This document shows, piece by piece, positions 582 through 14,819 of a stretch of 20,000 nt of DNA. The position numbers were made by a program, and so were the translations under genes. The stretch's first letter is position 1. Every line of letters begins with the position of its first letter. The DNA lies in sequence record DRR378314_1424; one strand, given 5' to 3'. The notes under the pieces were generated by a model. It was not told the DNA's origin. It saw only the letters and a program-made list of their open reading frames with translations, and did no database searches.

Positions 582-1059
582 GGCCACGCTGGCCCGCCCT
601 GCGGCGCATCCCATCGTTGACAGATCCGGCTAGGGCAAACTCCGCTGGCCCGAGTTCCCGAGCGTTCATTGTTCTGTAATCCACACTGCCGTTGTGATCG
701 CCGGGGACCAATCCTCTGGGCGTCTTCCCCGCATTTTCTGCGCTGATGATGGCGGGTCCGTCAGGGCGACAAAGAGCTGGCTCCCCAGCTTCGCGACCCT
801 TGGCCCCTGTGCGGCAATCCCCGGTGACATCTGTTTTATGATTCCCGGGCGTGAATGCTTGCCAATTCGGCAGAACCTCGCCAGAACGTCACCGGATACA
901 ACGCAGGGTATATTCCACATCGACCAACACGACCACACGCATCCATTGCACGTGTTAAAAACGTGGCCTGCATTGCTAATTCGTTCCTGCCTAGTCTAAA
1001 TTTAGGACATCGGGCCGGTTTACACCATGTCAGCCACTCGTGCGGAGATAACCCTTTTC

Positions 1060-4000
1060 ATGACGCGCCCTGCACCGCATATCTCGGAGTTTCTGGCCGG
1101 CATCGGCCTGCCTCAACTGCTTGATCTGTTTTCCGCAGAAGACATTGATATGTCGACCCTGATGCTGTTGGACAAGGACGACCTGAAAGAGCTTGGCTTG
1201 ACCCTGGGCCAACGCAAGAAACTGCTGGCCGCGATGGATGCCTTGCCAGCAGCTGCGGGCGACGCAGCGCCTGCCGATGCCCCCCCCGAAGAGGCCCCGA
1301 TCCAGCTGCGCCGTATCAGCGTGCTGTTCTGCGATATTGTTGGCTCCACAGAGTTGAGCCAGCAGCACAGTATCGAAGACATGCAGATCATCATGCAGCA
1401 TTATTATCAGGTCGCTGATGACATCGCCCGACAGCATGATGGCTATCTTGTCGGCTCGCAAGGTGATGGTGTGGTCATCCTGTTCGGCTATCCGCGTGTC
1501 CTTGACGGATTTGCCGAACGCTGTGTTCAGGCGGCACAGAATCTACAACGCGCATTGGCGGAAAAGCTGGTGACCTTTGACGGACGGGCGTCGTTTCATA
1601 TCCCCACACGGATTGGCATTGCCACCGGGCAGGCCGCCGTCGGACAGGCCAGCGGGGCCCTGCGCGGAGATGCGATGCAACTGGTTGGCCCCGTGGTCAA
1701 TCGCGCCGCGCGGCTTCAGACCGTGGCCAACCCGCAATCCATTGTGGTGGACAGCAAGACCCAGCATCTGACCCGAAGTTCCGTACTTTATTCCGAGGTA
1801 GAGGCGCATGACCTCAAGGGGCTGCCCTCTGGCACTGAAGTGTTTCACGTTCTAGGGCTGCGCCATGAGGTCGAAGGCCCGGTTGCACCCGCCACGCTGA
1901 TCGGGCGTGACGGCGAGGCTGCCACCCTGCGCCGACTGTGGACGCAGGCGCAGGCCGGCACGCCGGTTACCGTCACAATCACCGGCGATGCGGGCATTGG
2001 AAAATCGACCCTGATCCAAAGTTTCGTGTCGATGCAGACCAACCCTTCGATGCGCGTCCTGCACCTGCATTGCGCTGCAATGGGTGCCCGCTCGCCCTTG
2101 TTGCCGGTGGCCAAAACACTGGATGCGCTGACCGCTTCAGGGGCGACAAACCCATCGCTCGCCAGTCTTCTCGGTGACCCGGCCCCGGAACTGCTGCACC
2201 GTGCCGCCCAGTTCCTCGGACTTGGTGCCGCACCTGCGGAAGATGTGACGCTTTCGCTGCGGGACCGTGACAGTATCCTTGATCTGCTTGGCCGCTGGAT
2301 CATCCGGGGGGCATCCGGCCCGACCCTGCTGTTTGTGGAAAACGCCCAATGGGCCGACAACTCCACTCGCGAGCTTTTGAAACGTGCCGCGGAACGTGCC
2401 CGCCGCGAGGGGGCTGCGCTGATGATGATCGCCGCAACGCGCGCAGACAGCCCCGACATCTGGATCGAACAGAAAGGCCATGAAACCCTGATCCTGCCGC
2501 CGCTGGATCAGCGCCATTGTGAAAAGCTGTTGCAGGGGATTTTTGGGAACAAGCCAATCCCGCACCCCATCCGTAACAACATCCTGAGTCATTCCGGCGG
2601 CAATCCCCTGATGCTGGAAACACTGGGCCAGGCGCAGGCCACGCAGCAACAGACAATGGTCGCAGGTTCGGTGGAAATCCCGCATACGATTTATGAATCC
2701 GTCTCCAAACGTCTTGACGGGATCCGTATGGGGCGCAGCGTGATCGAAGCCCTTGCAGTCTTGGACAGCCCAGCCAGCCCTTCCCTGTTAGCGGCGGTCC
2801 TTGATCGTGATGCCGACAGCATGAAACCGGCGATAGACGCATTGGAACAGGCCGGTCTGGTCTTGCGTGAGGGGACACAAGGACAGGAGGTGGCGACCAT
2901 CCGCCATCAGGTGTACCGAGATGTGATCTATGAACAGATCGTCGGACAATCCCGAAGGCGGCTGCACACGGCGGCCTATTCGGCGCTGGACGGATATTAT
3001 ACAGACACTGAGGCCCAGCGCCCTGATGTTCTGGCAACACATGCTCATGTCGCACGAGATTGGGAAAACACTGCCGCTCATGCGCTGGAGGCAGGCGAAA
3101 GCCTGCTGAAACGCTCTGCTCTGATCGAAGCGGGGCATTTCCTGGAAATGGCCAATGGCGCCATGCAACGGCTGCCGGGCAATGCTGCCAACAAGAAAAA
3201 ACACCTGCGTACGATCACCGGTCTCGCCTCTGTTGAACGGTCACGCTTTGGGATCGCGACGGACGCCAGTGCGGATCTTGGCACACAGGCGGTGCAACTC
3301 GCCCGCGAGCTTGGCGACAGCAAGACAGAGCTTTTAGCGCTGAACGGGCTTTATGCGCATTCATTGGTGCGGGCCAACTATCCGCAGGCGCAGGAATACG
3401 CCGAAACCCTGTTGGAAACCGCCAGCCACAGTCAGGACAAGACCTTTGTGATGATTGGCACCCGCGCCATTGGGGCCGTGGCGTTTCACCGATCCGACCA
3501 GAAAACCGCCCAGCGCAACCTAAGTCTGGCCTTGTCCCAATATGACAAGGACACCCATCTGCCTCTGGCCCATGCCCATGGCTATGACCACGCGGAAATC
3601 TGCGCGGCCTTCCTTTGCATGTCAAACTGGCTGACTGGTGATCTACAGCAATCGCGCCATTTTGGTGCCTTCTCCATCAACCATTCCCGTGAAATCGGCC
3701 ATGCCCATTCACTGGCGCAGGCAATGGCCTTTCGGGTCATGCTGGGGGCGCTTGCCCGCCATGGAACCGAACTTTCGGTGATTGCCAGCGAAGCCATTGC
3801 ATTAGGTGAAAAACACGACATCCGGGTGATGCGCGCCGCTGCCGTCCTGTTCCCTTTTGTCACCCAACTGTGCCTGCGGCCCGAACCGCCAAAACCTGCC
3901 GAGATGACTGACCTTGCCCTGCGCGTAAAAGAGTTTCGCGAGGTAAACCCCTTTAACTACGGGCCCTTGGTCGCCTCCTTGATCGCCGAAGCCTCTTTGC

Positions 4001-4353
4001 GGGCTGATGATATTGACGGCGCAGAGGCCGCCCTGTCAGAAGGTTCAACGCTTGAGCTGCGCACCGGTGAGACCTGGACAGCACCCGAATTGTTGCGCCT
4101 GCGGGCCTGCGTTGCCGCAGCGCGGGGGAAGGTCGAGATTGCCGGCCAGCTGCGTCAGGAAGCCTTGAAAAGTGCAACCCGCGCCGGTGCCCTGACGCTG
4201 GCGCTGCGGATCCTCTGCGACATTGCCGTGGCGGATCCCGGCCCGACCACAATCCAGCCTCTGCGTGACGCCCTGCAACGAATGGCATCCGATGATCAGG
4301 GGTGGGATACGCAACGCGCCACCGCCCTTGTTCAGGCCGTTGGCCTGACCTGA
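1060..4353 (+). CDS. SAM domain - class III adenylate/guanylate cyclase - AAA/STAND ATPase - TPR-like helical protein
   Basis: SAM domain (FLAGIGLPQ...DDLKELGLTLGQRKKLL); cyclase motifs VLFCDIVGST, GDG, RIGIATG and VNRAARLQ; Walker A GDAGIGKS; HSGGNPL motif; Ala/Leu-rich helical C-terminus. Start is 1060 (GGAG at 1044-1047) or 1027. Confidence 0.9.
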   Translation: MTRPAPHISEFLAGIGLPQLLDLFSAEDIDMSTLMLLDKDDLKELGLTLGQRKKLLAAMDALPAAAGDAAPADAPPEEAPIQLRRISVLFCDIVGSTELSQQHSIEDMQIIMQHYYQVADDIARQHDGYLVGSQGDGVVILFGYPRVLDGFAERCVQAAQNLQRALAEKLVTFDGRASFHIPTRIGIATGQAAVGQASGALRGDAMQLVGPVVNRAARLQTVANPQSIVVDSKTQHLTRSSVLYSEVEAHDLKGLPSGTEVFHVLGLRHEVEGPVAPATLIGRDGEAATLRRLWTQAQAGTPVTVTITGDAGIGKSTLIQSFVSMQTNPSMRVLHLHCAAMGARSPLLPVAKTLDALTASGATNPSLASLLGDPAPELLHRAAQFLGLGAAPAEDVTLSLRDRDSILDLLGRWIIRGASGPTLLFVENAQWADNSTRELLKRAAERARREGAALMMIAATRADSPDIWIEQKGHETLILPPLDQRHCEKLLQGIFGNKPIPHPIRNNILSHSGGNPLMLETLGQAQATQQQTMVAGSVEIPHTIYESVSKRLDGIRMGRSVIEALAVLDSPASPSLLAAVLDRDADSMKPAIDALEQAGLVLREGTQGQEVATIRHQVYRDVIYEQIVGQSRRRLHTAAYSALDGYYTDTEAQRPDVLATHAHVARDWENTAAHALEAGESLLKRSALIEAGHFLEMANGAMQRLPGNAANKKKHLRTITGLASVERSRFGIATDASADLGTQAVQLARELGDSKTELLALNGLYAHSLVRANYPQAQEYAETLLETASHSQDKTFVMIGTRAIGAVAFHRSDQKTAQRNLSLALSQYDKDTHLPLAHAHGYDHAEICAAFLCMSNWLTGDLQQSRHFGAFSINHSREIGHAHSLAQAMAFRVMLGALARHGTELSVIASEAIALGEKHDIRVMRAAAVLFPFVTQLCLRPEPPKPAEMTDLALRVKEFREVNPFNYGPLVASLIAEASLRADDIDGAEAALSEGSTLELRTGETWTAPELLRLRACVAAARGKVEIAGQLRQEALKSATRAGALTLALRILCDIAVADPGPTTIQPLRDALQRMASDDQGWDTQRATALVQAVGLT

Positions 4354-5675
4354 ACAAAAGCGCCGCCAAGGGTCAGGCGTTCCAGCAGTTTGAAAACAAG
4401 CGGCATGTCATGTTGACGGCCCAGCCGGTTCGCAATCTCTTGCAAGGATGCAGCAGGACGACAGGCCGCCGCAACATCCAGCGCGGTCACCGGCCCCAGC
4501 CCGGTCAGAAAATCATCCTGCACGCGAAGTTTAATTGCCGGTGCCCAATAAATGCGATCCTGTGACAGTACCGGGGCGCGGGTCAGTGGCGCGGCCAGCG
4601 TTACCGGACCTTGCAATACAAGCGCCGCTGGGGCGGATTGCACTTCGCGCGCGCTGCGGGCGGTCCAGAACGCGGTTTGAAACCGTGATTGATCCGCATA
4701 GGCACGATCCGTGGCAAGCTGCGCGGCAACCACCGCTGCCTGATGTTTGTGGCGCAAAAAACTCTGCGCCGCGTGGTCATCGCCAGTAGGATCAAGGATG
4801 GTCAAAGCGGCAATCGCCGTTTGAACCCCGCTGCGCAATGCATGGACCAACCCATGTGATGCAATCGGGTCCCGCGCCAATGCGGCATCCCCCACCAGCA
4901 AATGCCGCGCTGTGACAACAGGGTCCCCCACCGCAGACAGGCCCGCAGCAGCAGGTTTCCCCACAGTGATTGCAGATAGATAGGGGAAACAATCCGACTC
5001 CGCCAAACAAGCCCTCAGGTAAGCCGCGCGCGCCGCCGCCCCTTTTCCCGCAAGCGCTGCTGCGGGTTGGAACACCACACCTTGAACCTGACCTTCGGGC
5101 AATGAACAGGCCCAGAACCAGCCATCTGGCAAAGCCTCCAACCCCATCATAAAGGCGGGCGACTCCCCCCGCGCGGTAAATGGCAGGGCTGTGAGATCCG
5201 TGGCAGGGCGTTTGTTTGCATGACGTCCCCGGGCGTCAATCACCAGATCACACTGAACCTTGCCCGCATCCGTGTGCAATTGAACACCTTCGCCACACGG
5301 CCCAACGTCACGCACCCGCGCTTTTAACGCCCGTGCATATCGCAAGGCCTCCTCACGCAGGCTTTCATGCAAAGCACCACGGTGCAGCAGCAATGGCCCG
5401 GCACCTTCAAACGTGCGTAGCTCCGGGGCCTCACGCCAGACCATCTGCATCGCTTCTGCCGGTCCATCGCTGACGGCCCAGAATGCCTGAAGCAAGCCGA
5501 GCTCTTCTGCCAATGGTGCGCCGGATGGTGGAAAGCTCTCGATACCCTGACCCTTGTGAGGCGTGAGCGGATCAATCAGCAGGACGTCGATACCCGCCAG
5601 CCCCAGCTGGCGTGCGGCAATTGCCCCCGCCGGTCCTGCCCCCAATACAGCAACCTGCGCCTTATGCCTGCGCAT
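4332..5675 (-). CDS. FAD-dependent monooxygenase, LodB/GoxB/QhpG-like (putative tryptophylquinone-forming flavoprotein)
   Basis: GAGPAG Rossmann motif, ESFPP (cf. GESLPP), IDARGR, GWFW, VGDAALARDPIASHGL, and late YADQSRFQTAFWTAR, followed by a C-terminal extension. ATG at 5675 overlaps the radical SAM stop by 14 bp; the ORF track start at 5699 is the alternative. Confidence 0.8.
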   Translation of the reverse strand: MRRHKAQVAVLGAGPAGAIAARQLGLAGIDVLLIDPLTPHKGQGIESFPPSGAPLAEELGLLQAFWAVSDGPAEAMQMVWREAPELRTFEGAGPLLLHRGALHESLREEALRYARALKARVRDVGPCGEGVQLHTDAGKVQCDLVIDARGRHANKRPATDLTALPFTARGESPAFMMGLEALPDGWFWACSLPEGQVQGVVFQPAAALAGKGAAARAAYLRACLAESDCFPYLSAITVGKPAAAGLSAVGDPVVTARHLLVGDAALARDPIASHGLVHALRSGVQTAIAALTILDPTGDDHAAQSFLRHKHQAAVVAAQLATDRAYADQSRFQTAFWTARSAREVQSAPAALVLQGPVTLAAPLTRAPVLSQDRIYWAPAIKLRVQDDFLTGLGPVTALDVAAACRPAASLQEIANRLGRQHDMPLVFKLLERLTLGGAFVQVRPTA

Positions 5676-6984
5676 CAAACCAATCCGGCTGCGCCGCACT
5701 CAAGCGCCCGTAGGCGCGCAGCCCGTAGTCCAGCCAGCCCCGCACAAAGTCGCAGGCCGGTCGCCCCGCATGCAGCACCTCCTGATGGCAGCCACCGCCG
5801 CACAGCCGCCGGGCCCAACAGGTTTGGCACGGGGTTTGGCGTTCTACCGTGCGGGCATCTAGAAAGGCCGCGCGCGCGACATCATCCGGCCCGCTCTCCA
5901 GATCCCCCATCGCCCCCAGCGGATCTTTGACAAAGCGATGACAGGCGGAATAATCGCCAGCAGCATCCACTGCAAGATAATCACGCGCCGCACCACAGCC
6001 ATGGCTGCGCGGGCTGCCGCGATGAAGTTCGCCCAGAACCGTGGCGAGATTGGCAAAAGGATGGCTGCGCCCCGCGAGTGTCGCGCGCATCCAAGCGTCA
6101 CCACAGGCCGTCATCGCCGCCAGCAATTGTGCAAAATCCTGCCCGGCCAAGGCACCCTGCCCCGTGGGCGACGAAATCATCGGCGACACCCCAACCGAGG
6201 CAAAACCCAGCGCGGCAATATCATCAACCACCTGCAGCAGATCGAGATTTTGCGGCGTCACAGTCACCCGCGCGCCCAGCGAAATCCGGTCGCGATGCGC
6301 CAGCAGCGGTGCAAGGCGCTGCGCGACGCGGGCAAAGCTGCCCTTGCCCGCGCGATCAGGGCGCAGGCGGTCGTTCACCGCCTTGCCACCATCAAGGCTT
6401 ACCGTCACGGCAAACCGGTGGCGGGCGAAAAACGCAGCGTCCTCGGGGGAAATCAACGTGCCATTGGTGGTCAGGGAATAGCCCACCTGAATGGCCCGCG
6501 CAGCACCACGTTTATTTGCGTAAGTCACGGATTTTCGGATCAAATCCCGCGCCACCATGGGCTCCCCCCCCATAAAGGCAATCTTGACCCCGCCACCCGG
6601 AACGGTGGCATAAATCAACTGGTCAATCGCACGTTTGGCGACTGTCCAACCCATGCGCGTATCCGCCCCGCCAAAACTGCCACCCGCCGCGTAGCAATAG
6701 CCACAGGCCAGATTACAGGTTTGCGATACCGTCAGGGCCAGCGCCCGTACCGGATGGATTTCTGTATCAGGTGGCGTGCTAAGCGGCACAGCGTCGAGCC
6801 CCAAACGCGCCAGCTCAGGCGCGGCAGCTGCATCACCGGCCAGCAAGGCCGCACGCAGTTTCGTAGCCTGCGCATCCGACAGGCCAAAGATTGCAGCCGT
6901 TTCTGCCATCAGCACCAGATCATCCGCCACATGGGCCAGACCGCTGACCGGCTTCTGCATCAGATCAGGCAAAACCACCGTCAT
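5662..6984 (-). CDS. Radical SAM/SPASM protein maturase (QhpD/CteB-like) with probable N-terminal RRE
   Basis: CNLACGYC (CxxxCxxC), FMGGEP, TTNGT and VSLDG motifs; SPASM cysteines CGAARDYLAV...ACHRF and CQTCWARRLCGGGC...C; ~80-aa N-terminal extension. ATGA overlap with the upstream gene at 6981-6984. Confidence 0.92.
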   Translation of the reverse strand: MTVVLPDLMQKPVSGLAHVADDLVLMAETAAIFGLSDAQATKLRAALLAGDAAAAPELARLGLDAVPLSTPPDTEIHPVRALALTVSQTCNLACGYCYAAGGSFGGADTRMGWTVAKRAIDQLIYATVPGGGVKIAFMGGEPMVARDLIRKSVTYANKRGAARAIQVGYSLTTNGTLISPEDAAFFARHRFAVTVSLDGGKAVNDRLRPDRAGKGSFARVAQRLAPLLAHRDRISLGARVTVTPQNLDLLQVVDDIAALGFASVGVSPMISSPTGQGALAGQDFAQLLAAMTACGDAWMRATLAGRSHPFANLATVLGELHRGSPRSHGCGAARDYLAVDAAGDYSACHRFVKDPLGAMGDLESGPDDVARAAFLDARTVERQTPCQTCWARRLCGGGCHQEVLHAGRPACDFVRGWLDYGLRAYGRLSAAQPDWFDAQA

Positions 6985-8792
6985 TTCAGGTTTGCAAAAA
7001 ATGGTATGCCGATGTTCTTGCGGGCAAGCGCCAAGGCCATGTCGCTGAGGTCATGCATGGCATCACGGGCCTTTTTGATTTCGGTGTTGGCCTGGGGCAT
7101 ATCGCCCAGGTTTGCCTCGATCAGATACCCTTTGCCCAGGGCCTCAAGTGCAAGGTCAATCAGATGCAGCGCCGGTTGTACCTCTGCGGCGTCCGGCTTG
7201 GCCTCTTTGACGGGGCGCAGATACAGGGCTTCCTGCGCGGCATAAGGCTGCAGTATCCGCATCACATCGCGGAATTTTTGATAGTGCTGCATCCCGTCGC
7301 TGTCGATCCGAACGGCCAGCTGGTACAGGCCTTCGGGAAAGTGATCCATATACTCGCGCAAATAGGCCACCAGCTTGACGTATTCGGTATCCAGATCCCC
7401 GCCGGGGCGTTCAATATCAACAAAGTTCTGCAAGACAGCCTGTGTTGCCGGGCGCAATTCACCGGTCCCGCTATGCCCGGTCTTACTGTGCGGGTCCGCT
7501 TCGATCTTGGTCGGTGATAGGACGGGTTCATATGTGCCAACTTCCGGATAGGCGGCAAAAATCAACCACAACGTCTGGTTCACCCAGCGCAGATGGGTCA
7601 TTTCACTCAGCGCTACAGATAGGATCAACTGCCGCGCGGCGCGCAGATCTTCTGTCAGGCCGGGCCATGCGGCCTCTTGATCCGGCGTCACCTCATCCGG
7701 TTCGCGCAGGCTGAAATAGGCGTAAAGATACTCCAACGCCAGCGTCAGCTCCATCCCTGCCAATTCGTGCAGGTCGTCGATCAATTCTTCCAGTTTTTCG
7801 TAAGGCTCTTGCGGCTGCAACTTTAGCAAATCCGTTGTCCCCTCGGCCTCCTGCCCTTGCAGAACAAAATCCAGCTCCTCCCAATGCAGGTTGATTTCGT
7901 ATGGATCGTACCGATCCGGGCGCGCCTTTTCCAAAGTGGTCTGCGCCGAGACATCCTTGAGCGGCAAATGCCGTCTGCGCATCCAGTCGATAAAGGTAAC
8001 TGCCTGCGCCGGATCATCCTTATCGGTGCCATCAGGCAGCTGTTGTGGATCATCCACCTCGCCCAAGACAACATCGGGATGGTTTGACGCCCAGTAATGA
8101 CAGGCGCAATCCCGAAAATCATGGGTCCAGGGGCTGCACATGGAGGAAGTAAGTTCACCGGGGTGATAGACCGGATCAATCATCCCCTCTTCGTTCAGAA
8201 ACATGCGCCGCCGGCCGGTCAGCACCACAGGCGCGCCACTGGGTGATCCGTCAGGGCCGCGTTGCGTCAGGGCAATGGTCAGAGGTTTCTCTGCTTCAAT
8301 CAGGCGAATAATCCACCATACAGTTTCACCCTCATAAGGGACCAAACCGACACCGTTCTGATACAGCGAATAGTCATACATCATGATCCGTTTGCCGTCC
8401 TGTTCGACAAAATGCAGATACCATGTGCCACTGCCCAGCGCCGTACCGGCGGGACCGGCAAATTGTTTCTTCAGGTCAGTGACCCAATCGGGACCGTCAT
8501 CGGTATATTTATCCGCAATGATCGGATCACCCTTGGGGAAAGCATAGGTCAGCCGCGCCCCCTGTGTGCCATCCGGCCCGGCAGGGGTGATGCCAAGGAA
8601 TTCAAACACCAGCCCCGGAAAGAACCGCACATCCAATTGGCGCAGGTCGAATTCCAACCCCGGAAAACAGTTACCGACACCGGATTCCATCAAGGTCGAC
8701 ACCGGATTGCCCAATACCGGTTCGCGGTAGGCCGGATTGCCGTCAGCATCAGCCTTGCGGGCCTTGTTCAATTGTCTGGGTCCGGCTGTCAT
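6981..8792 (-). CDS. LodA/GoxA-like CTQ-cofactor (C-terminal) module fused to a ferritin-like domain
   Basis: GNCFPGLE, PGELTSSMCSPWTHDFRDC, YWASNHPDVV and WEELDFV match the LodA C-terminal motifs (PG.E; PGDLT..M..PWQ.DF..C; WWP..RPD.V; W..LGF). A ferritin-like region follows: ELTLALEYLYAYFSL, EMTHLRWVN, FVDIERP, HYQKF. ATG at 8792 has GGAGG 7 nt upstream and an ATGA overlap. Confidence 0.8.
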   Translation of the reverse strand: MTAGPRQLNKARKADADGNPAYREPVLGNPVSTLMESGVGNCFPGLEFDLRQLDVRFFPGLVFEFLGITPAGPDGTQGARLTYAFPKGDPIIADKYTDDGPDWVTDLKKQFAGPAGTALGSGTWYLHFVEQDGKRIMMYDYSLYQNGVGLVPYEGETVWWIIRLIEAEKPLTIALTQRGPDGSPSGAPVVLTGRRRMFLNEEGMIDPVYHPGELTSSMCSPWTHDFRDCACHYWASNHPDVVLGEVDDPQQLPDGTDKDDPAQAVTFIDWMRRRHLPLKDVSAQTTLEKARPDRYDPYEINLHWEELDFVLQGQEAEGTTDLLKLQPQEPYEKLEELIDDLHELAGMELTLALEYLYAYFSLREPDEVTPDQEAAWPGLTEDLRAARQLILSVALSEMTHLRWVNQTLWLIFAAYPEVGTYEPVLSPTKIEADPHSKTGHSGTGELRPATQAVLQNFVDIERPGGDLDTEYVKLVAYLREYMDHFPEGLYQLAVRIDSDGMQHYQKFRDVMRILQPYAAQEALYLRPVKEAKPDAAEVQPALHLIDLALEALGKGYLIEANLGDMPQANTEIKKARDAMHDLSDMALALARKNIGIPFFANLK

Positions 8793-10606
8793 ATTTTTTC
8801 CTCCGCGGCGGGCGTTTCGACCTGTGGCTGCACGCTGTGCTTCCATTCTCCCTCCAGTTTTTCGAGGTACTTCATCAGCAGGTCATATTGCCGACGCGTG
8901 ACTGACAGCGGTACCCCCATCGAATGGCGCATATAGGGCGGCATACGCATGTCGTAGGTTTGGGCAATGGTCACACGCGGATCGCGAAATTCAATATCAT
9001 CCGGCCCGTTTGCGCCAAAATCAACCGATGGCCCTTTTTGCACACCGGGGATTTTCGCCAGCTCTCCCACATGGGCAAACGGCGGACGTACAATGCGGCG
9101 CACACGGTCAGGATCGCGCAGCAGGAAGGCCCGCAGGATCGGGCTATCGCACATGCGGGCATGCACCTGTTGCACCACTTGGGTATAGGGCAGACGGTCA
9201 TTCGTGCCCGATCGGGGCTCTATTGTGTCACCCTGCCCCGGTGTATATTCCGGCACCAGGCTGGCATAGGGCGCATCACTTTCGCGCATGGATTTCGGCC
9301 CCAGATGCGGGGTGATACCGGCATCCCAGTTGGGATCGTTTTCATTGGGTTCACTCAGCAATTGGGCATTGCCATCCAGCGCCCAAGAGCGGCGTTGATC
9401 CAGATTGATCAGGCTGGCGGTTTCGAAAATTCGGCGGAACAAGTCCAGAATTTCAACCGGTGTTTCGTCAATATCAAGCGTTGCAGGCGGCAGATCACGG
9501 TCTTCCAATTCGTCTTGTATCGAATACATCGGACGTTTGTCCGGTGCGAAATCGGGAGGGCCTGCCATGGCACGGGCCTGTGCCACATGCGCCTTGCCCT
9601 CCACTGCCATCTGCGCCGTCAGCACCAAATCGCAGGTATCGTCGATCAAGCCCCAGCCATTTCCCGACCCGACACGCGCGCCATCATAGCTGTCCATCGG
9701 GGTGGGCCATTTGGGTGTGTTGTCAGTGCGGAAATTATACCCTGACCACGGGGTGTCGGAACTCAGGATGCGGTTTTCCTTGCGGGTCATTTTGTGGATC
9801 GGGCCGTATTCCGTCATCGGTGGTTCAAATCCACCTGCCGGCAGGGGAGAGGCCGGTGCCTTGGCCGCTTCGGGTGGACCAAAGCTGTCGCCCTTGCCGG
9901 GAATAAAGCGGATCCGCACCTGATCCAGCCGGGTTTTACAGCTGATGTTTTCGAGGTTTTCTTTAAACGTCCTGATCTTGCCCAGTGGCAACGGCGCATC
10001 CTCGCGCACCAGTGGCACCTGCCCTTCGGTATGCGGGCTGATCGCGTCCAGATGATGAGTCTTATAGTGATCCGCAGCAAACACCTTGCGGGCCACCGCC
10101 GCACAGGAGGCCAGTTTGGTGCGCGATTCCGCTTTGCGGTTGGCCGCCTCGACAGTGAATTGCAGATGTTTCAGGCTGGTGCCGCGTTTCTCAAGGAAAT
10201 GACGTGTCACCGGCACCTGCACTACGGTGCCGTCAGGATCCTGAAGCCGCGCCCAAAGTTCAAAGAAAGGGGCCACCGGTTTGATCTTGCCATAACGGTC
10301 CTTGAAAGTGACGCGCATTGGTGTCTGCACCTTCAGGGTAAATGGGTGGTGGCCGTTGCCCTTGACCGAGGTTTCGATCAGGCTGGGGGCGGGTTCGATC
10401 ATGGTCTGTACCCCGCGTGCCGGATTTTCATCCAGTTTCCAGCGATAGGCGGGCATCGGTTCTTTCGAGCGCCCCACCCGTGCAATTGCCATCGGCGGGT
10501 CAAAGAAAATGCCCAACATCCGGCCCTGCGTCGGATCACGGCCACACCATGGTTCGCAAGTTTCAGGATCTGCATGGGTGCAGGGTTTTAATCTATCGGT
10601 CGTCAT
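8789..10606 (-). CDS. LodA/GoxA-like N-terminal module (lacks the cofactor residues)
   Basis: PPMAIARVGRS (cf. HPAIGIARVGNS), FKDRYGKIK, FTVEAANRKA (cf. WTVHLANKKA), DDTCD, GPPDFAP and LSVTRRQY occur in LodA order. Start is 10606 (AGGGA upstream); 10615 and 10642 are alternatives. Confidence 0.8.
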   Translation of the reverse strand: MTTDRLKPCTHADPETCEPWCGRDPTQGRMLGIFFDPPMAIARVGRSKEPMPAYRWKLDENPARGVQTMIEPAPSLIETSVKGNGHHPFTLKVQTPMRVTFKDRYGKIKPVAPFFELWARLQDPDGTVVQVPVTRHFLEKRGTSLKHLQFTVEAANRKAESRTKLASCAAVARKVFAADHYKTHHLDAISPHTEGQVPLVREDAPLPLGKIRTFKENLENISCKTRLDQVRIRFIPGKGDSFGPPEAAKAPASPLPAGGFEPPMTEYGPIHKMTRKENRILSSDTPWSGYNFRTDNTPKWPTPMDSYDGARVGSGNGWGLIDDTCDLVLTAQMAVEGKAHVAQARAMAGPPDFAPDKRPMYSIQDELEDRDLPPATLDIDETPVEILDLFRRIFETASLINLDQRRSWALDGNAQLLSEPNENDPNWDAGITPHLGPKSMRESDAPYASLVPEYTPGQGDTIEPRSGTNDRLPYTQVVQQVHARMCDSPILRAFLLRDPDRVRRIVRPPFAHVGELAKIPGVQKGPSVDFGANGPDDIEFRDPRVTIAQTYDMRMPPYMRHSMGVPLSVTRRQYDLLMKYLEKLEGEWKHSVQPQVETPAAEEKI

Positions 10607-12188
10607 GGCGTTCATTCCCTGTCTTATCCTCGGGTGTGTCATGCACCGGTGGTTTCTGATCGGGTTTCAGCCCCAGACTCTGTTCAAACCAGAACATATT
10701 GTGCGGATCAAACTTGGCCTTTGCCGTTTGCAAACGCGGTAGGTTGGTGCCGAAATAGGCCTCCAAAAACCCTTTGGTCCCGCGACGCGGATAGTTTTGG
10801 TAACGGTGGCCATTGCCCATAGGGGCAACGATACCACCCAGCCCGTCAAGCCAGCCAATCGACGCTTCCTTATGGGTGTCGAACGTCCAAAAGGCCCAGC
10901 TAAACAGATCAACCGATGGCGTGCGGTGGAAAAAAGCCATCTCGTCGGGTTTCGGGTCAGCGATTGCGCCGCCATAGAATTCCATCGCGATGAAACAGGT
11001 TTTGTCCGGCGCTTCGAGAAAATGATCAACGACATTGCGCCAACGGTCCGCACTGTGATGTTCCTCGATCAGCCACCCTTCGACCAGCGGTTTGGTGTTC
11101 ATAGACACGGTTGGCATGTCATGACCTGCCGGATTTGCGGTCTGCAACAACAGCTCGTTCAGGCGGGTGTAATGGTGTTTATGTGTCCAGATTTCCACAT
11201 CTTTGCGCGGGTCTTCCAATGTGGCCAGCAGGGGGCCAAGGGCAGCCTCAGCTTCGGCGCGGGAACCATCATAAAGACCGCGCAGAGACAGGCAGGGGAT
11301 TTGCCCGTCAGGGTGATCTGCATCCGGCAGATACATCAGCAAGGCCTGATGCCCCATCTTGGGCGGGCCGGAATTGGAGTATTCCGCCTGCAAGGTTTCC
11401 AGCACCCGGCAGATCCGCTGAATATCCGCCTCATGTTTGTGGCGCATGTTCCAGCGCAGGCCAAAACCAAAGAACTTACGGTCCAGCGGCACAGGGTCAT
11501 AGGTCACTTCCAGAAGGATACCAAACTGGTTGCCGGTCCCACCGCGGATCGCCCAAAACAGATCGGGGTTTTCTTCCGCACTGGCGCTCAGCACAGACCC
11601 ATCCGCCAGTGCCACCTTCACACCGATCACACGGTCACAATTCATCCCAAACAGCCGCGAGGTGAAACCGTAGCCTCCGCCCATCATATATCCGGCCACA
11701 TTCACAGTCTCACACCCACCGCCGGGCAGATGCAGTTTGTGATGGTCCAGCATGCGGTTCAACTTGCGAAAGGTGACACCGGGCCCACAGCGCACGGTCG
11801 GCGTTTGCCTATCTACCTCCAGATGGTTCAAGCCAGAGGTGTCAATCACCACCTGATCGTTTACCGAATAGCCGGCGGTGCAATGCCCACCGGAACGGGC
11901 AGTCACCTGCAACCGTGATTTGCGCGCAAACTCCAGCGCGGCAAGCACATCCGTCTCGCATTCGCAAAACACAATGACCTGCGGGTATTGCTGGTAGGTA
12001 TGCATGAAAACCATGCGGTCGTCATTGTATCCGGGAGCCCCTGCCAATTGAATACGGCCGCTGAGGCGTTGTTGTAATTTGTCTAAATGTTTTTGTTTGT
12101 AGTCAGGTAGGCCGGATTCTTTGGTCTTAAATGTTTTCCACTTCGCTTCGTGGCGATGATGGTGGTGGCGATGGTCACCATGCGTCAT
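10593..12188 (-). CDS. FAD-binding oxidase, berberine-bridge-enzyme/VAO family, probably bicovalent FAD
   Basis: RSGGHC (covalent His), GGGCETVNVAGYMMGGGYG (covalent Cys position), DLFWAIRGG, and C-terminal YQNYP...YFGTNLPRL...KFDPHNMF. Strong RBS GGGGGAG upstream. Confidence 0.92.
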   Translation of the reverse strand: MTHGDHRHHHHRHEAKWKTFKTKESGLPDYKQKHLDKLQQRLSGRIQLAGAPGYNDDRMVFMHTYQQYPQVIVFCECETDVLAALEFARKSRLQVTARSGGHCTAGYSVNDQVVIDTSGLNHLEVDRQTPTVRCGPGVTFRKLNRMLDHHKLHLPGGGCETVNVAGYMMGGGYGFTSRLFGMNCDRVIGVKVALADGSVLSASAEENPDLFWAIRGGTGNQFGILLEVTYDPVPLDRKFFGFGLRWNMRHKHEADIQRICRVLETLQAEYSNSGPPKMGHQALLMYLPDADHPDGQIPCLSLRGLYDGSRAEAEAALGPLLATLEDPRKDVEIWTHKHHYTRLNELLLQTANPAGHDMPTVSMNTKPLVEGWLIEEHHSADRWRNVVDHFLEAPDKTCFIAMEFYGGAIADPKPDEMAFFHRTPSVDLFSWAFWTFDTHKEASIGWLDGLGGIVAPMGNGHRYQNYPRRGTKGFLEAYFGTNLPRLQTAKAKFDPHNMFWFEQSLGLKPDQKPPVHDTPEDKTGNERHDDR

Positions 12189-12212
12189 AAAATGTCTCCC
12201 CCAGCCAGAACG

Positions 12213-12228
12213 TTAACCAAACTTTAAC
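12213..12228 (+). promoter_or_regulatory. CtrA binding site (TTAA-N7-TTAAC)
   Basis: TTAA-CCAAACT-TTAAC is an exact consensus match, ~25 bp upstream of the operon's first ATG, in a GC-rich genome. Confidence 0.7.
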
Positions 12229-12473
12229 AACCTGTCACCTGTTCTGGCTCTTTGCTTGGGGGCGCTGGATGGCTCCTTATCCTGCAGGGAGAAAAGCATT
12301 TCAGTCCAGCCTCCCTTGGCCTTTCAATCAGGGAGGCTGAATCCATCGGGGAAACACAACTATGAGGAGCCCTTCATTCCGCGAAGTGATCCCTGCTTTT
12401 CTCTTGGAACAGGGTTGGCGGTTTTGATGCACGCATGTGATAGGTCTGAAAAGCAGCGCCAGGTCTTGGCCGA

Positions 12474-12905
12474 TTACGCCGCATCAGGCGCTTTGCATAA
12501 CCTCCAGAACTCTTGCAAAGTCTTAAGCACATCAGAGAGCTCTGACGCGCTGTCCGGTTTTACAATATAGCCATTCGCATTGTTCTGATACGCAAGCTCC
12601 ACATCTTTTTTGCTTGCTGATGTTGTAAAGACAAACACACGCGCCAGTTTGATTTCTTCGGTTTTTCTCAACTTCGCAAGAAATTCATGCCCGTTCATGC
12701 GCGGCATGTTGATGTCCAGCAAGATGACATAGGGACGGTCAAGCCGCTCGCTGAGCGCCTCGTCACACAGGATTTCCAGTGCTTCCACGCCATCTTTCGC
12801 GCGTAACAGGGATCCGGTCGACCCCAGTTTCCTCAACGACCGTCTGAGTATTTCCACGTCTACGTCATTGTCTTCGACCAGTAAGATGTTCATGTCATGT
12901 TTCAT
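12474..12905 (-). CDS. Single-domain response regulator (Rcp1-like receiver)
   Basis: ILLVEDN, ILLDINMPRMNG, FTTS and ANGYIVKP motifs. ATG at 12905 lies directly after the kinase stop; the longer ORF-track start overlaps the kinase. Confidence 0.92.
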   Translation of the reverse strand: MKHDMNILLVEDNDVDVEILRRSLRKLGSTGSLLRAKDGVEALEILCDEALSERLDRPYVILLDINMPRMNGHEFLAKLRKTEEIKLARVFVFTTSASKKDVELAYQNNANGYIVKPDSASELSDVLKTLQEFWRLCKAPDAA

Positions 12906-12906
12906 C

Positions 12907-14688
12907 TTATGCGGCCCTTTGTGACAGAAGAGATGTGGACTGCGACAGAGTACAAGGCCAGTCGAAATGGAAGGTCGCCCCCCTTCCAAGTTCAGACTGA
13001 ACCGTGATCTTACCACCATGGCGTTCGACCGCTTTTTTGACAATCGCCAGACCAATACCGGTGCTTTCGGGCATATGAGCCAGTCGAAGCGTCTGAAATA
13101 CCTTGAAAATTCGATCATGAAACTTCGGATCGATACCCGGACCGTTATCGGATACTGAAAAACAACAACGATCTCCTTCAAGTTTGGCCGATACAACAAT
13201 CTGCAGCGGATCCGTACCGTCGTAGTATTTCACGGCATTCCCGATAAGGTTTTCCAAAACACGGCGCAGATTCACGGTATCCACATCAACGGCTTCGATA
13301 TCTCCGTTCAGCACCAGTTGGTCTTCCCCCAGGCCCAGATCCAGGATCAAATCAACAAGCGCCCCTTTCAGATCCAGATGCCCAGTTTCACCGGCATGCA
13401 CATCAACCTTTGCATACTCCATGATGCCTTGCGTCAGTTGATTCATACGAACAACGCGGCTTTGAATCAGATGCAGGTTTTGGCGAACTTCCGGGTTTGC
13501 GTCTGCTGATGCAAAATACTCTTCAAGGTCCTCCTCGATCATCTCTGTCAGCCCGTTGATCCCGCGGATCGGCGTTTTCAGGTCATGGGACGCGATATAG
13601 GCAAATTCCTCAAGCGCCTCATTCTTCACCGACAATTCCTTGTTCATCGTGTTAAGCCTTGCGGTCTTGGCCTTTAGGGAAACGGTCACCTCGTCAGCAT
13701 AGGAAATCGCCCGCTTGTTCGCCCGCGCCATGAGGAACAGCAGCGCGATAATCAACGCCTCGATCACCAGACCGGCAATCAGAATATATGTTGATTGCGA
13801 ATAGGTGTTTTGCCCGCGAAACGCGAGGTTGCTCCGAATGTCGACGGTCCAGGTGCGCCCGTAAAGATTGATCGCAACCAGATCCGAATGCATCGGGTCG
13901 GCGTCATGTAATTCATCTATTGCAGCATGTTCATCGTAAATCAGGCTGCCGTCATCATGGATGCTAAAACGCACATTGCGCAGCTCTGTTGCCAGCAACC
14001 CTTGCATCAGCTTGTGAACAACAAATGGGGCATAGACCGCGCCGGCGGGCACACCGTTGTTTTCAAAGGGCGCATAGAACAGAAATCCCGGCGTGCTGCT
14101 TTCATCCTGAACAAGGGTGATGGGGCCGGTGATCTGTGACGTGCCTGTATCTCTGCTGGCCAGTGCGGCCGTGCGCCGGTTGGTTTCATGTGCGACGTCC
14201 AGCCCGATGGCCGCCGCATTACTGCTTTCCGGCTCGATATAGGTAATCGGCATATAAAATGACTGCTCATGTTCCGGGAAAATCCGGAATTCCGGTCGGC
14301 TGCCGCGTTGTTCGGCCAGATAGGCGTCCAATGTCTGTGCAGTTTGGAAATGGATCACACCGATCCCGTTAATACCCGGATATTTTTCATGAATATCCAA
14401 TGTCTGTGCAAAGGCATGCCAATCCTCATAGGAGATATCCCCGCCATGTGACTCAATGGCGGCCACGCCCGCCCAAAGTGCATCCTCGTATTTTTCCATG
14501 CGGTCCACTATCAATGCCAAAGCGCGATCGCGCGCGGCCTCAAAACGCAGGCTGACCCGTGTTTCAATTTGCTGCCGCGAAAACTGCCAGGCGAACAGGG
14601 TCAAACACAGGGAAAGAGTAACCACAATAACATGGATCGCTTTGATCCGGCTTTCTGCATTTGCAGGTATTTCATGCATCTGAGTCAA
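12907..14688 (-). CDS. CHASE-domain sensor histidine kinase
   Basis: Two TM helices flank a CHASE domain (YPGINGIG, YIEP, AIGLD, ITLVQD, GRTW). H-box FAYIASHDLKTP, N-box NLIGNAVKY, DNGPGI and GIGLAIV are present. TTG at 14688 follows AGGAGG; alternatives are 14679 and 14724. Confidence 0.92.
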   Translation of the reverse strand: MTQMHEIPANAESRIKAIHVIVVTLSLCLTLFAWQFSRQQIETRVSLRFEAARDRALALIVDRMEKYEDALWAGVAAIESHGGDISYEDWHAFAQTLDIHEKYPGINGIGVIHFQTAQTLDAYLAEQRGSRPEFRIFPEHEQSFYMPITYIEPESSNAAAIGLDVAHETNRRTAALASRDTGTSQITGPITLVQDESSTPGFLFYAPFENNGVPAGAVYAPFVVHKLMQGLLATELRNVRFSIHDDGSLIYDEHAAIDELHDADPMHSDLVAINLYGRTWTVDIRSNLAFRGQNTYSQSTYILIAGLVIEALIIALLFLMARANKRAISYADEVTVSLKAKTARLNTMNKELSVKNEALEEFAYIASHDLKTPIRGINGLTEMIEEDLEEYFASADANPEVRQNLHLIQSRVVRMNQLTQGIMEYAKVDVHAGETGHLDLKGALVDLILDLGLGEDQLVLNGDIEAVDVDTVNLRRVLENLIGNAVKYYDGTDPLQIVVSAKLEGDRCCFSVSDNGPGIDPKFHDRIFKVFQTLRLAHMPESTGIGLAIVKKAVERHGGKITVQSELGRGATFHFDWPCTLSQSTSLLSQRAA

Positions 14689-14819
14689 ACTTTGATCCTC
14701 CTGTTGGAATCTCTGCCTACTCAAAATGTATTGATATTCGATTTATCTTTTTTACCTGTTTGTATGACGCCCGATCGCTTGCCTGTCAGCGGATACCCAC
14801 GCCAAAATCCATGGTGCGA

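Follow-up and report, generated by a model that had tools for sequence, protein, structure and literature searches.

Can a quinoprotein of the LodA type be matured by enzymes of the kind that serve quinohemoprotein amine dehydrogenase (QHNDH)? The question is raised by a five-gene operon on the minus strand (4332-12188) of a 20,000-nucleotide stretch of sequence record DRR378314_1424; by the window we mean this whole stretch. The original prediction, made from the DNA letters, saw in the operon a LodA-type scaffold joined to a QHNDH-type maturation pair, and this hybrid holds as far as sequence analysis reaches. The reading that we favor, with somewhat better than even confidence, is that the operon encodes a cytoplasmic two-chain quinoprotein of the LodA family together with its own QHNDH-type maturation enzymes, whose chemistry would follow, by analogy, that of QhpC, QhpD, and QhpG. 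The cassette probably links two systems that have so far been treated as separate, LodA/GoxA and QHNDH.

The operon and its LodA-like gene pair

Five consecutive open reading frames (ORFs), which we call g5 to g1 from the 5' side, make up the operon (10593-12188, 8789-10642, 6981-8846, 5662-6984, and 4332-5699 in the ORF listing). Reading of the junctions confirmed the starts and the gapless arrangement first described, with overlaps, in the order g5 to g1, of 14, 4 (ATGA), 4 (ATGA), and 14 bp. The ATG of g4, at 10606, leads to a 14-bp overlap with the TAG stop of g5 (10595-10593); g4 and g3 are joined by an ATGA at 8792-8789, and g3 and g2 by another at 6984-6981. The ATG of g1, at 5675, gives a 14-bp overlap with the TAA stop of g2 (5664-5662), an in-frame GTG upstream, at 5699, being an alternative start. 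Neither intergenic space nor a small ORF was found within the window operon, as judged from the ORF listing and the junctions. Since the gene order recurs in 80 related loci, the arrangement of the cassette is not due to chance.

The g4 product (8789..10606, 605 amino acids (aa) from the ATG at 10606) corresponds to the N-terminal ~60% of a LodA/GoxA-type protein. It had no match in Pfam or NCBIfam, the Pfam domains LodA_N (PF17990) and LodA_C (PF18417) not being found even at E 10, so that calling it LodA-like required profile and fold evidence, which supports the call. Direct sequence searches of the PDB with g4 and with g3 did not find LodA either, and family profiles were needed. We used alignments of database homologues of g4 (A1, 37 sequences) and of g3 (A2, 35 sequences), and an alignment of 11 canonical LodA-like proteins from genomes, which are PF17990 matches (A3). 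The A1 profile, searched against the PDB, found GoxA and LodA first (E 0.06-1.8), and its profile-profile alignment with A3 (hhalign) reached a probability of 98% (E 2.8e-13) over 276 columns. A predicted local distance difference test score (pLDDT) of 77 was obtained when g4 was modeled with AlphaFold. Among the top Foldseek matches listed for this model, 18 out of 18 were LodA or GoxA chains (E 1.8e-9 to 7.9e-8). VIA-align placed residues 44-600 of the model on LodA 2-424 (Z 12.7, root-mean-square deviation 5.7 Å, 324 aligned residues), with 14 LodA/GoxA entries in the lead (Z 11.5-12.7) and the next match outside the family at Z 7.4. The g4 product is a distant homologue of the N-terminal part of LodA, as had been proposed for 8789-10606.

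Some further features of g4 and its relatives were noted. Below the LodA and GoxA entries, its beta-sandwich (residues 41-371) has fold matches to the C-terminal domain in the alpha subunit of QHNDH (1jju_A 352-489, Z 7.3, 22% identity; 1jmx_A 365-491, Z 6.7, 19% identity), and there are many immunoglobulin-like matches of similar Z. The first ~30 residues (10510-10606) contain three Cys (C-x7-C-x3-C); this N-terminal extension is absent from most family members, which start at residue ~36-45. In two proteins of ~1650 aa (P0257 and P0258), a molybdopterin oxidoreductase (PF00384, PF01568) is fused to a LodA N-domain of the g4 kind, which has 29-30% identity across 63% of g4. Both are devoid of LodA_C in the precomputed Pfam list, and the P0258 sequence, read by eye, has no cofactor loop.

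The cofactor-bearing, C-terminal part of a LodA-type protein was found in the N-part of g3 (7812..8792, minus strand; g3 residue numbers are counted from the ORF start at 8846), where the Pfam match to LodA_C reached 24.2 bits, just below the cut-off of 25. When A2 was limited to residues 19-350 and realignment was off, hhalign aligned it to A3 with a probability of 93.7% (E 1.9e-7) over 99 columns. In the A2 profile, C247 of g3 falls on C516 of LodA and D243 on D512, while hhalign places W252 on the canonical cofactor Trp (W581), with an 11-residue deletion between the Cys and the Trp. We located W581, the second W of a 'WWPPQSP' stretch, by aligning the A3 profile to the LodA/GoxA chains. 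C516 and W581 form the cofactor of LodA, the aligned Cys and Trp are present in all LodA-like proteins, and D512 is a residue with a role that is named alongside them (PMC4417212; here and below, this paper, PMC7876137, and PMC11951088 are cited for the parts of their text that were available to us). The LodA likeness proposed for 6981-8792 is thus supported both by the profile alignment and by the position of the three residues of the cysteine tryptophylquinone (CTQ) site.

When the ends of the two proteins were aligned to the canonical LodA profile, the top local match of the g4 tail was to columns 366-381 and that of the g3 head to columns 414-428, both weak (E 0.12). Judged from these alignments, g4 and g3 together are colinear with a single LodA. 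When longer proteins were searched, 15 fused g4+g3 proteins of 1123-1183 aa were returned, one of which (P0247, from Ruegeria sp. HKCCA6707, locus L077) has a short Pro/Ala-rich linker between the halves. Six cyanobacterial loci show a second split: in place of g3, they have one gene for a 326-aa LodA C-part and another for a 317-aa PF12902 protein. The idea of a split LodA pair therefore stands for the window and for most genomes, which have two chains, but the split is not a fixed property of the family, given the 15 fused proteins and the three-way division in cyanobacteria.

The predicted complex of g4 (36-617) with g3 (19-350) had a score of 0.74, compared with 0.00 for the best of 3 controls; in a calibration, 51 of 78 solved complexes scored this high, as did 2 of 108 mismatched pairs. 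The runs shared at least 20% of their contacts, with a pLDDT of 28-30 for the partner, and the confident interface brought together g3 residues 32-56 and the first beta strands of g4. Because LodA and GoxA have been solved as single chains, the passing score may reflect this likeness. The modeling supports a predicted g4-g3 interface. When g3 was modeled alone, pLDDT fell below 50 at residues 40-66 and 233-342, which are the parts expected to pack on g4. A fold search with the whole g3 model returned the ferritin-like domain only (Foldseek), and no LodA or GoxA chain was listed in a wide VIA search, which is explained by the poor prediction of the LodA-like part when g3 is folded alone.

The candidate cofactor loop and the two probable maturation enzymes

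The candidate cofactor loop of g3 (C237-D258; 8073..8138, minus strand) reads C237-x5-D243-x3-C247-x-C249-x2-W252-x5-D258, and its six pattern residues are invariant in the 35 sequences of A2. A scan of one genome per species yielded 177 stretches with a g4 relative, and all counts of loci given here are for the best 80. The loop core C-x-C-x2-W was present in 78 of the 78 loci that hold this region (one is cut straight after C-x-C), the Asp at W+6 in 76 of the 77 that reach this position, and the strict motif in 71 of 80. Six of the nine loci that deviate from the strict motif are cyanobacterial and differ only by a Phe to Met change at a non-pattern residue; the three others are one cut by a contig end, one lacking g3, and L040, which is discussed below.

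This arrangement resembles that of QhpC, the small QHNDH subunit, whose mature peptide reads, in three genomes, C27-x5-D33-x3-C37-x3-C41-x-W43-x5-D49. The CTQ of QhpC consists of Cys37 and Trp43. QhpD builds three Cys-to-Asp/Glu thioethers, the ring closed by Cys41 and Asp49 containing Trp43, and after this step QhpG dihydroxylates Trp43; QhpD, QhpG, and QhpC form a ternary complex (PMC7876137). QhpC genes (PF08992; L105, L106, and L107) were found in 3 of 151 genomes of the same order, and PF08992 had no match in the nearest available genome (78% of sampled words shared with the window, 100% complete). Of the five spacings in the g3 and QhpC loops, four agree to within one residue, and the Cys-to-Cys spacing is off by two (x vs x3).

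The canonical LodA-like proteins look different. At the position of C237, 11 out of 11 have Ala or Gly. In the seven of the 11 that were parsed by script, the Cys-to-Trp loop is 12-34 residues long and contains no Cys, and W+6 is never Asp; in LodA itself, 64 residues separate the cofactor Cys from the Trp. Three g3 residues have no counterpart in canonical LodA-like proteins, and it is these three that correspond to bridge residues of QhpC. The sequence of the g3 cofactor loop thus appears to match the QhpC crosslink pattern, with putative bridges, rather than the long Cys-free loop of canonical LodA-like proteins.

A separate observation was made with QhpC and the canonical proteins. A three-sequence QhpC profile aligned with the C-terminal cofactor segment of A3 with a probability of 73.6% (E 2.9e-5) over 75 columns, and the motifs D-x3-C and WWPAQ / WPAR are common to both. 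This alignment hints that the gamma subunit of QHNDH has a common origin with the cofactor segment of LodA.

Further evidence for a QHNDH-type maturation was provided by g2 and g1. The g2 product (5662..6984, minus strand, 440 aa) is a radical SAM/SPASM maturase of the QhpD/PapB, thioether-forming kind. Its Radical_SAM domain has the CxxxCxxC motif at residues 90-97 (C90-x3-C94-x2-C97), and this motif and the C-terminal SPASM-type Cys (330, 348, 386, 389, 395, 399, and 411) are invariant in 21 orthologues. The best NCBIfam model was QhpD (TIGR03906; 305.6 bits, cut-off 453), followed by PapB (250), nif11 (214), SCIFF (212), DynA (95), YhhB (81), and FxsB (66 bits). All 21 orthologues matched TIGR03906, which had the best E-value of any model across the set (1.2e-95), PapB coming next, and it was also the top model for the cyanobacterial orthologue (321 bits). 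The QhpD and PapB families form Cys-Asp/Glu thioethers (NCBIfam names; PMC7876137).

The g1 product (4332..5675, minus strand, 447 aa) is a QhpG-type flavin monooxygenase. It aligned over its full length with QhpG (NF049967; 218 bits, cut-off 240), the scores with GoxB and LodB being 90 and 47 bits. All of 21 diverse orthologues matched QhpG (best E 6e-96, vs 2.3e-37 for GoxB and 7.7e-44 for LodB), and the cyanobacterial one (L067) exceeded the cut-off, with 313 bits against 240. By comparison, a LodB-type protein encoded as partner to a canonical LodA-like one scored 196 bits with GoxB, 188 with LodB, and 148 with QhpG. The closest models of g2 and g1 are thus those of the QHNDH-type pair proposed from the letters alone.

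In the mechanism that we propose, g4 would provide the N-terminal LodA fold, and g3 the remaining, cofactor-bearing part and a C-terminal ferritin-like domain. The g2 enzyme would form Cys-to-Asp thioethers in the g3 loop, for which C237-D243 and C249-D258 are the candidate pairs; a C249-D258 bridge would close a ring around W252, as the Cys41-Asp49 bridge does around Trp43 in QhpC. By analogy with QhpG, g1 would hydroxylate W252, and C247 would join the oxidized indole of W252 to yield CTQ. The mature enzyme would be expected to oxidize a primary amine or an amino acid. More speculatively, g5 could act as an optional downstream or accessory oxidase and the cyclase-STAND protein encoded next to the operon as a regulator.

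Conservation of the cassette and other explanations

Genes were counted in each locus by an iterated hidden Markov model search of all open frames of the 80 loci, which span six phyla and come from Alphaproteobacteria, Gammaproteobacteria including Burkholderiales, Cyanobacteria, Acidobacteriota, Actinomycetota, and Myxococcota. A g3 gene was present in 79 of 80 loci, the exception being a 1.7-kb contig. The radical SAM gene g2 was found in 72, the eight other loci all being ended by a contig end ahead of the gene's place, and the flavoprotein gene g1 in 71, the nine others being the same eight and one more with a contig end. Since all gaps lie at contig ends, no locus with room for these two genes lacks them, the counts being 72 of 72 for the radical SAM gene and 71 of 71 for that of the flavoprotein. 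Co-conservation of the radical SAM gene with the g4/g3 pair had been named beforehand as a test of the hybrid. Gene order was constant, except in L029, where g2 and g1 are inverted and a few kb away.

The fifth gene, g5 (10593..12188, minus strand, 531 aa), encodes a BBE-type FAD-linked oxidase, as originally assigned, with matches to FAD_binding_4 (PF01565, 103.3 bits) and BBE (PF08031, 50.7 bits). It was present in 62 of 80 loci; 12 of the 18 loci without it, cyanobacterial ones included, had room for the gene. The BBE gene is an accessory member of the cassette. Its product has a His-rich N-terminus, with seven His within the first 13 residues (12140-12188).

The C-part of g3 (6990..7814, minus strand) is a ferritin-like four-helix-bundle domain, as had been recognized at the outset. 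It matched PF12902 with 36.5 bits (cut-off 22.3), and residues 345-619 matched 3hl1_B with a Z of 19.2 (VIA), the next match being at 13.8. In the 35 sequences of A2, E366, E415-x2-H418, E479, D515, and H521 are invariant, and we infer that they are candidate dimetal ligands. Speculatively, a dimetal center in this domain may accept electrons from the reduced quinone or help in the oxygenation of the Trp. A PF12902 ferritin-like gene also precedes a canonical LodA-like gene in L099 (79-954), and a PF12902 gene beside lodA-like genes in fungi was noted in 2015 (PMC4417212), so that the partnership of LodA with PF12902 seems to be older than the g4/g3 family. Apart from this remark on gene neighborhoods, we found no literature on the function of PF12902 proteins. 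In L102 (1-1005) and L103 (59-1018), tyrosinase-domain genes precede canonical LodA-like genes, which fits the neighborhoods described in the same survey (PMC4417212).

The invariant ligand set and the fold match (Z 19.2) of this domain are also what would be expected if catalysis took place at a dimetal site there, the LodA-like pair being a scaffold without a quinone, the loop Cys and His (C237, C247, C249, H242, and H256) binding a metal or an iron-sulfur cluster, and g2 and g1 having jobs unrelated to a cofactor. With three Cys and two His, all invariant, among its 22 residues, the loop has a composition typical of metal sites, and 'GNCFPG' in g3, where canonical proteins have 'GGAFHPG', indicates that the active site differs from that of an ordinary LodA. 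We nevertheless consider this explanation unlikely, although it keeps the most weight among the alternatives. The g3 residues aligned with the cofactor residues of LodA, a Cys, a Trp, and an Asp, do not vary, the flavoprotein conserved along with the pair is of the sole family for which hydroxylation of a peptidyl Trp toward CTQ is known (PMC7876137), and a QhpD-type thioether former in 72 of 72 loci would be left unexplained.

Next in order, and also improbable, is that g3 does carry a quinone or a Cys-Trp crosslink but that g2 makes something other than Cys-Asp bridges, either the Cys-Trp bond itself or a link at other residues, such as C60, which is invariant in A2. The weaker matches of g2 to SPASM enzymes that form carbon-carbon or ether bonds (DynA 95, YhhB 81, and FxsB 66 bits) and the lack of the proposed bridge Asp in L040 point in this direction. 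Yet the four best models for g2 are named as thioether formers or peptide maturases, the top two, QhpD and PapB, linking Cys to Asp/Glu, and the g3 loop is in register with the QhpC pattern.

Downstream of the operon, a convergent gene (1027..4353, plus strand) overlaps the 3' end of g1 by 22 bp at its own 3' end. It encodes a 1108-aa protein with a SAM domain (PF00536), a class III cyclase (PF00211), and a STAND ATPase (PF13191), and its best NCBIfam model was the TOMM-system kinase/cyclase fusion TIGR03903 (260 bits, cut-off 705). Homologues lie next to the cassette in 59 of 80 loci, most often convergent after g1 or co-directional before g5, and in cyanobacterial loci the cassette is found without the STAND gene. 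This neighbor is a probable sensor or regulator. All-against-all clustering of 22 diverse loci gave, apart from antisense shadow ORFs, no family present in all of them besides the cyclase-STAND gene and the cassette genes g1 to g5, one 12-locus cluster being left unannotated.

BBE oxidases are common in secondary metabolism. The cassette could make a small natural product or a modified peptide; the peptide on which g2 acts would then have its gene elsewhere, and tailoring oxidation would be the task of the LodA-like, ferritin-like, flavin, and BBE proteins. We place this third among the alternatives, with little likelihood. It would fit the matches of g2 to maturases of peptides that are made by the ribosome and modified after translation (PapB 250, SCIFF 212, and nif11 214 bits) and the resemblance of the conserved neighbor to the TOMM-system fusion (260 bits). 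Against it stand the lack of intergenic space or of a small ORF in the window operon, the absence of protease or peptide-exporter domains (Pfam) from the flanking ORFs of the window and from two genes flanking the cassette in L067, and the absence of a further all-locus family from the 22 clustered loci, with the limit of the unannotated 12-locus cluster. Moreover, 12 loci lack the BBE gene although it would have room there, and no QhpC match was found in the nearest genome.

An anti-phage defense system built around the STAND ATPase and the cyclase is very improbable and was rejected: PADLOC yielded only generic, domain-level matches, weakly to Pycsar for the neighboring cyclase (51.6 bits) and to prokaryotic viperins for g2 (50 bits), g1, g3, g4, and g5 had no PADLOC match, and the cyanobacterial cassettes occur without the STAND gene.

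Upstream, a 286-bp gap (12189-12473) separates the 5' side of the operon from a response-regulator gene, followed by a CHASE histidine kinase gene, an AtuA-like gene, and a TctABC transporter; none of these is among the families common to the 22 clustered loci. An inverted repeat in the gap (12307-12339, 9-bp arms, 15-nt loop) could be the terminator of the upstream gene or an operator. The ORFs of the histidine kinase (12907-14724, minus strand) and the response regulator (12474-13199, minus strand) overlap by ~290 bp, and as the receiver domain begins only at residue 105, the true start of the regulator is probably further downstream.

Several points weigh against a LodA-family quinoprotein matured by QHNDH-type enzymes, the reading that we prefer. 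g4 has no LodA match in Pfam, and g3 falls short of the LodA_C cut-off (24.2 vs 25 bits). The fold of the partner itself was uncertain when the complex was modeled, and because pLDDT was below 50 in the region of the cofactor loop (residues 233-342), the Cys-Trp geometry could not be checked. The QhpC-like pattern of the loop was spotted by eye ahead of testing, and the profile alignment of QhpC with g3, which has the same register, is not significant alone (E 0.41 by default, 0.016 with relaxed gap costs). The contrast with the loops of canonical LodA-like proteins amounts to about one evolutionary event and is thus not independent replication. In L040 (L040:2576 onward), a metagenome-assembled Geminicoccaceae, a Tyr replaces the proposed bridge Asp D258. 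The pairs that we take to be bridged in QhpC, Cys27-Asp33 and Cys7-Glu16, are an assumption on our part. Since g2 and g1 remain under the QhpD and QhpG cut-offs (305.6 vs 453 and 218 vs 240 bits), they are paralogues rather than orthologues of these enzymes. Finally, release of peroxide by an amine oxidase in the cytoplasm would be odd, and the roles proposed for the ferritin-like domain and for the BBE oxidase are guesses.

Comparison with known systems

The only CTQ enzymes in a 2025 review, as far as its available text goes, are QHNDH, LodA, and GoxA (PMC11951088), and the maturation routes of QHNDH and of LodA/GoxA are treated as two unrelated ones. A 2015 survey of lodA-like genes describes lodB partners and, as neighbors, tyrosinase, multicopper oxidase, and, in fungi, PF12902 genes (PMC4417212); the words 'radical' and 'split' are absent from its main text, the part searched. 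No published link of LodA-like proteins with a radical SAM enzyme was found in the literature searched, which did not extend to subscription journals, and this agrees, within the same scope, with the earlier statement that no characterized example was known. NCBIfam contains no model for g3 or g4, and public records name these proteins 'hypothetical' or 'ferritin-like domain-containing'.

A bolder version of our preferred reading, which we regard as tentative and rather doubtful, is that the cassette represents a third class of tryptophylquinone enzymes. In this class, a LodA-type scaffold would carry a QhpC-type, thioether-caged CTQ made by QhpD/QhpG-like enzymes, and the quinone would be wired to a fused di-iron ferritin-like electron acceptor, perhaps reducing O2 to water; the cassette would also be the evolutionary link that points to one origin for the QHNDH gamma subunit and the LodA segment. 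Formation of water rather than peroxide at the ferritin-like domain would allow the amine oxidase to be cytoplasmic. The common origin of QhpC and the LodA segment would be supported by the alignment of the QhpC profile with canonical LodA-like proteins (73.6%, E 2.9e-5).

By joining two routes of CTQ maturation, the cassette offers a testable case for three open questions: how a large folded protein, rather than a leader-tagged peptide, is acted on by a thioether-forming radical SAM enzyme and by a flavin monooxygenase, what PF12902 proteins do beside quinoproteins, and where QhpC comes from. It could also yield new amine-oxidizing enzymes for marine bacteria of the Roseobacter group and others.

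The C-part of g3 has the domain family and fold of 3hl1 (CC_0557 of Caulobacter; PF12902). Unlike in proteins of the 3hl1 type, the domain is here fused to a LodA C-part, except in cyanobacteria, where it is encoded by a separate gene. With LodA/GoxA, g4 and g3 have in common a homologous fold in both halves and, at the aligned g3 positions, the CTQ Cys and Trp and the nearby Asp. Both kinds of operon include a FAD monooxygenase gene of the LodB/GoxB superfamily, and a PF12902 gene adjoins some canonical lodA-like genes (L099; fungi, PMC4417212). In contrast to LodA/GoxA, g4 and g3 are below the Pfam thresholds of both LodA domains, form two chains in most genomes, and have the ferritin-like domain fused on. 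The Cys-to-Trp loop of g3 comprises 4 residues, as compared with 12-64, with two Cys and an Asp gained, and the flavoprotein is of the QhpG rather than the LodB type. A radical SAM/SPASM enzyme is always present here, unlike in the lod/gox operons described in the available text of PMC4417212.

In comparison with QHNDH, the 9-kDa QhpC is lacking, the loop being part of a 600-aa LodA-type protein, as are the diheme QhpA, the QhpB propeller, the QhpE protease, the QhpF exporter, and a leader peptide. A Pfam scan of the 14 large ORFs of the window revealed no diheme, beta-propeller, protease, exporter, or QhpC-type domain, in agreement with the original remark that a heme alpha subunit, a beta-propeller, and a QhpE-type protease were missing. 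The radical SAM enzyme g2 is well below the QhpD cut-off. On the other hand, the closest models for the two maturases are QhpD and QhpG, the g3 loop has the order and nearly the spacing of the Cys, Asp, and Trp of QhpC, and maturation would take place in the cytoplasm, as it does for QhpC (PMC7876137).

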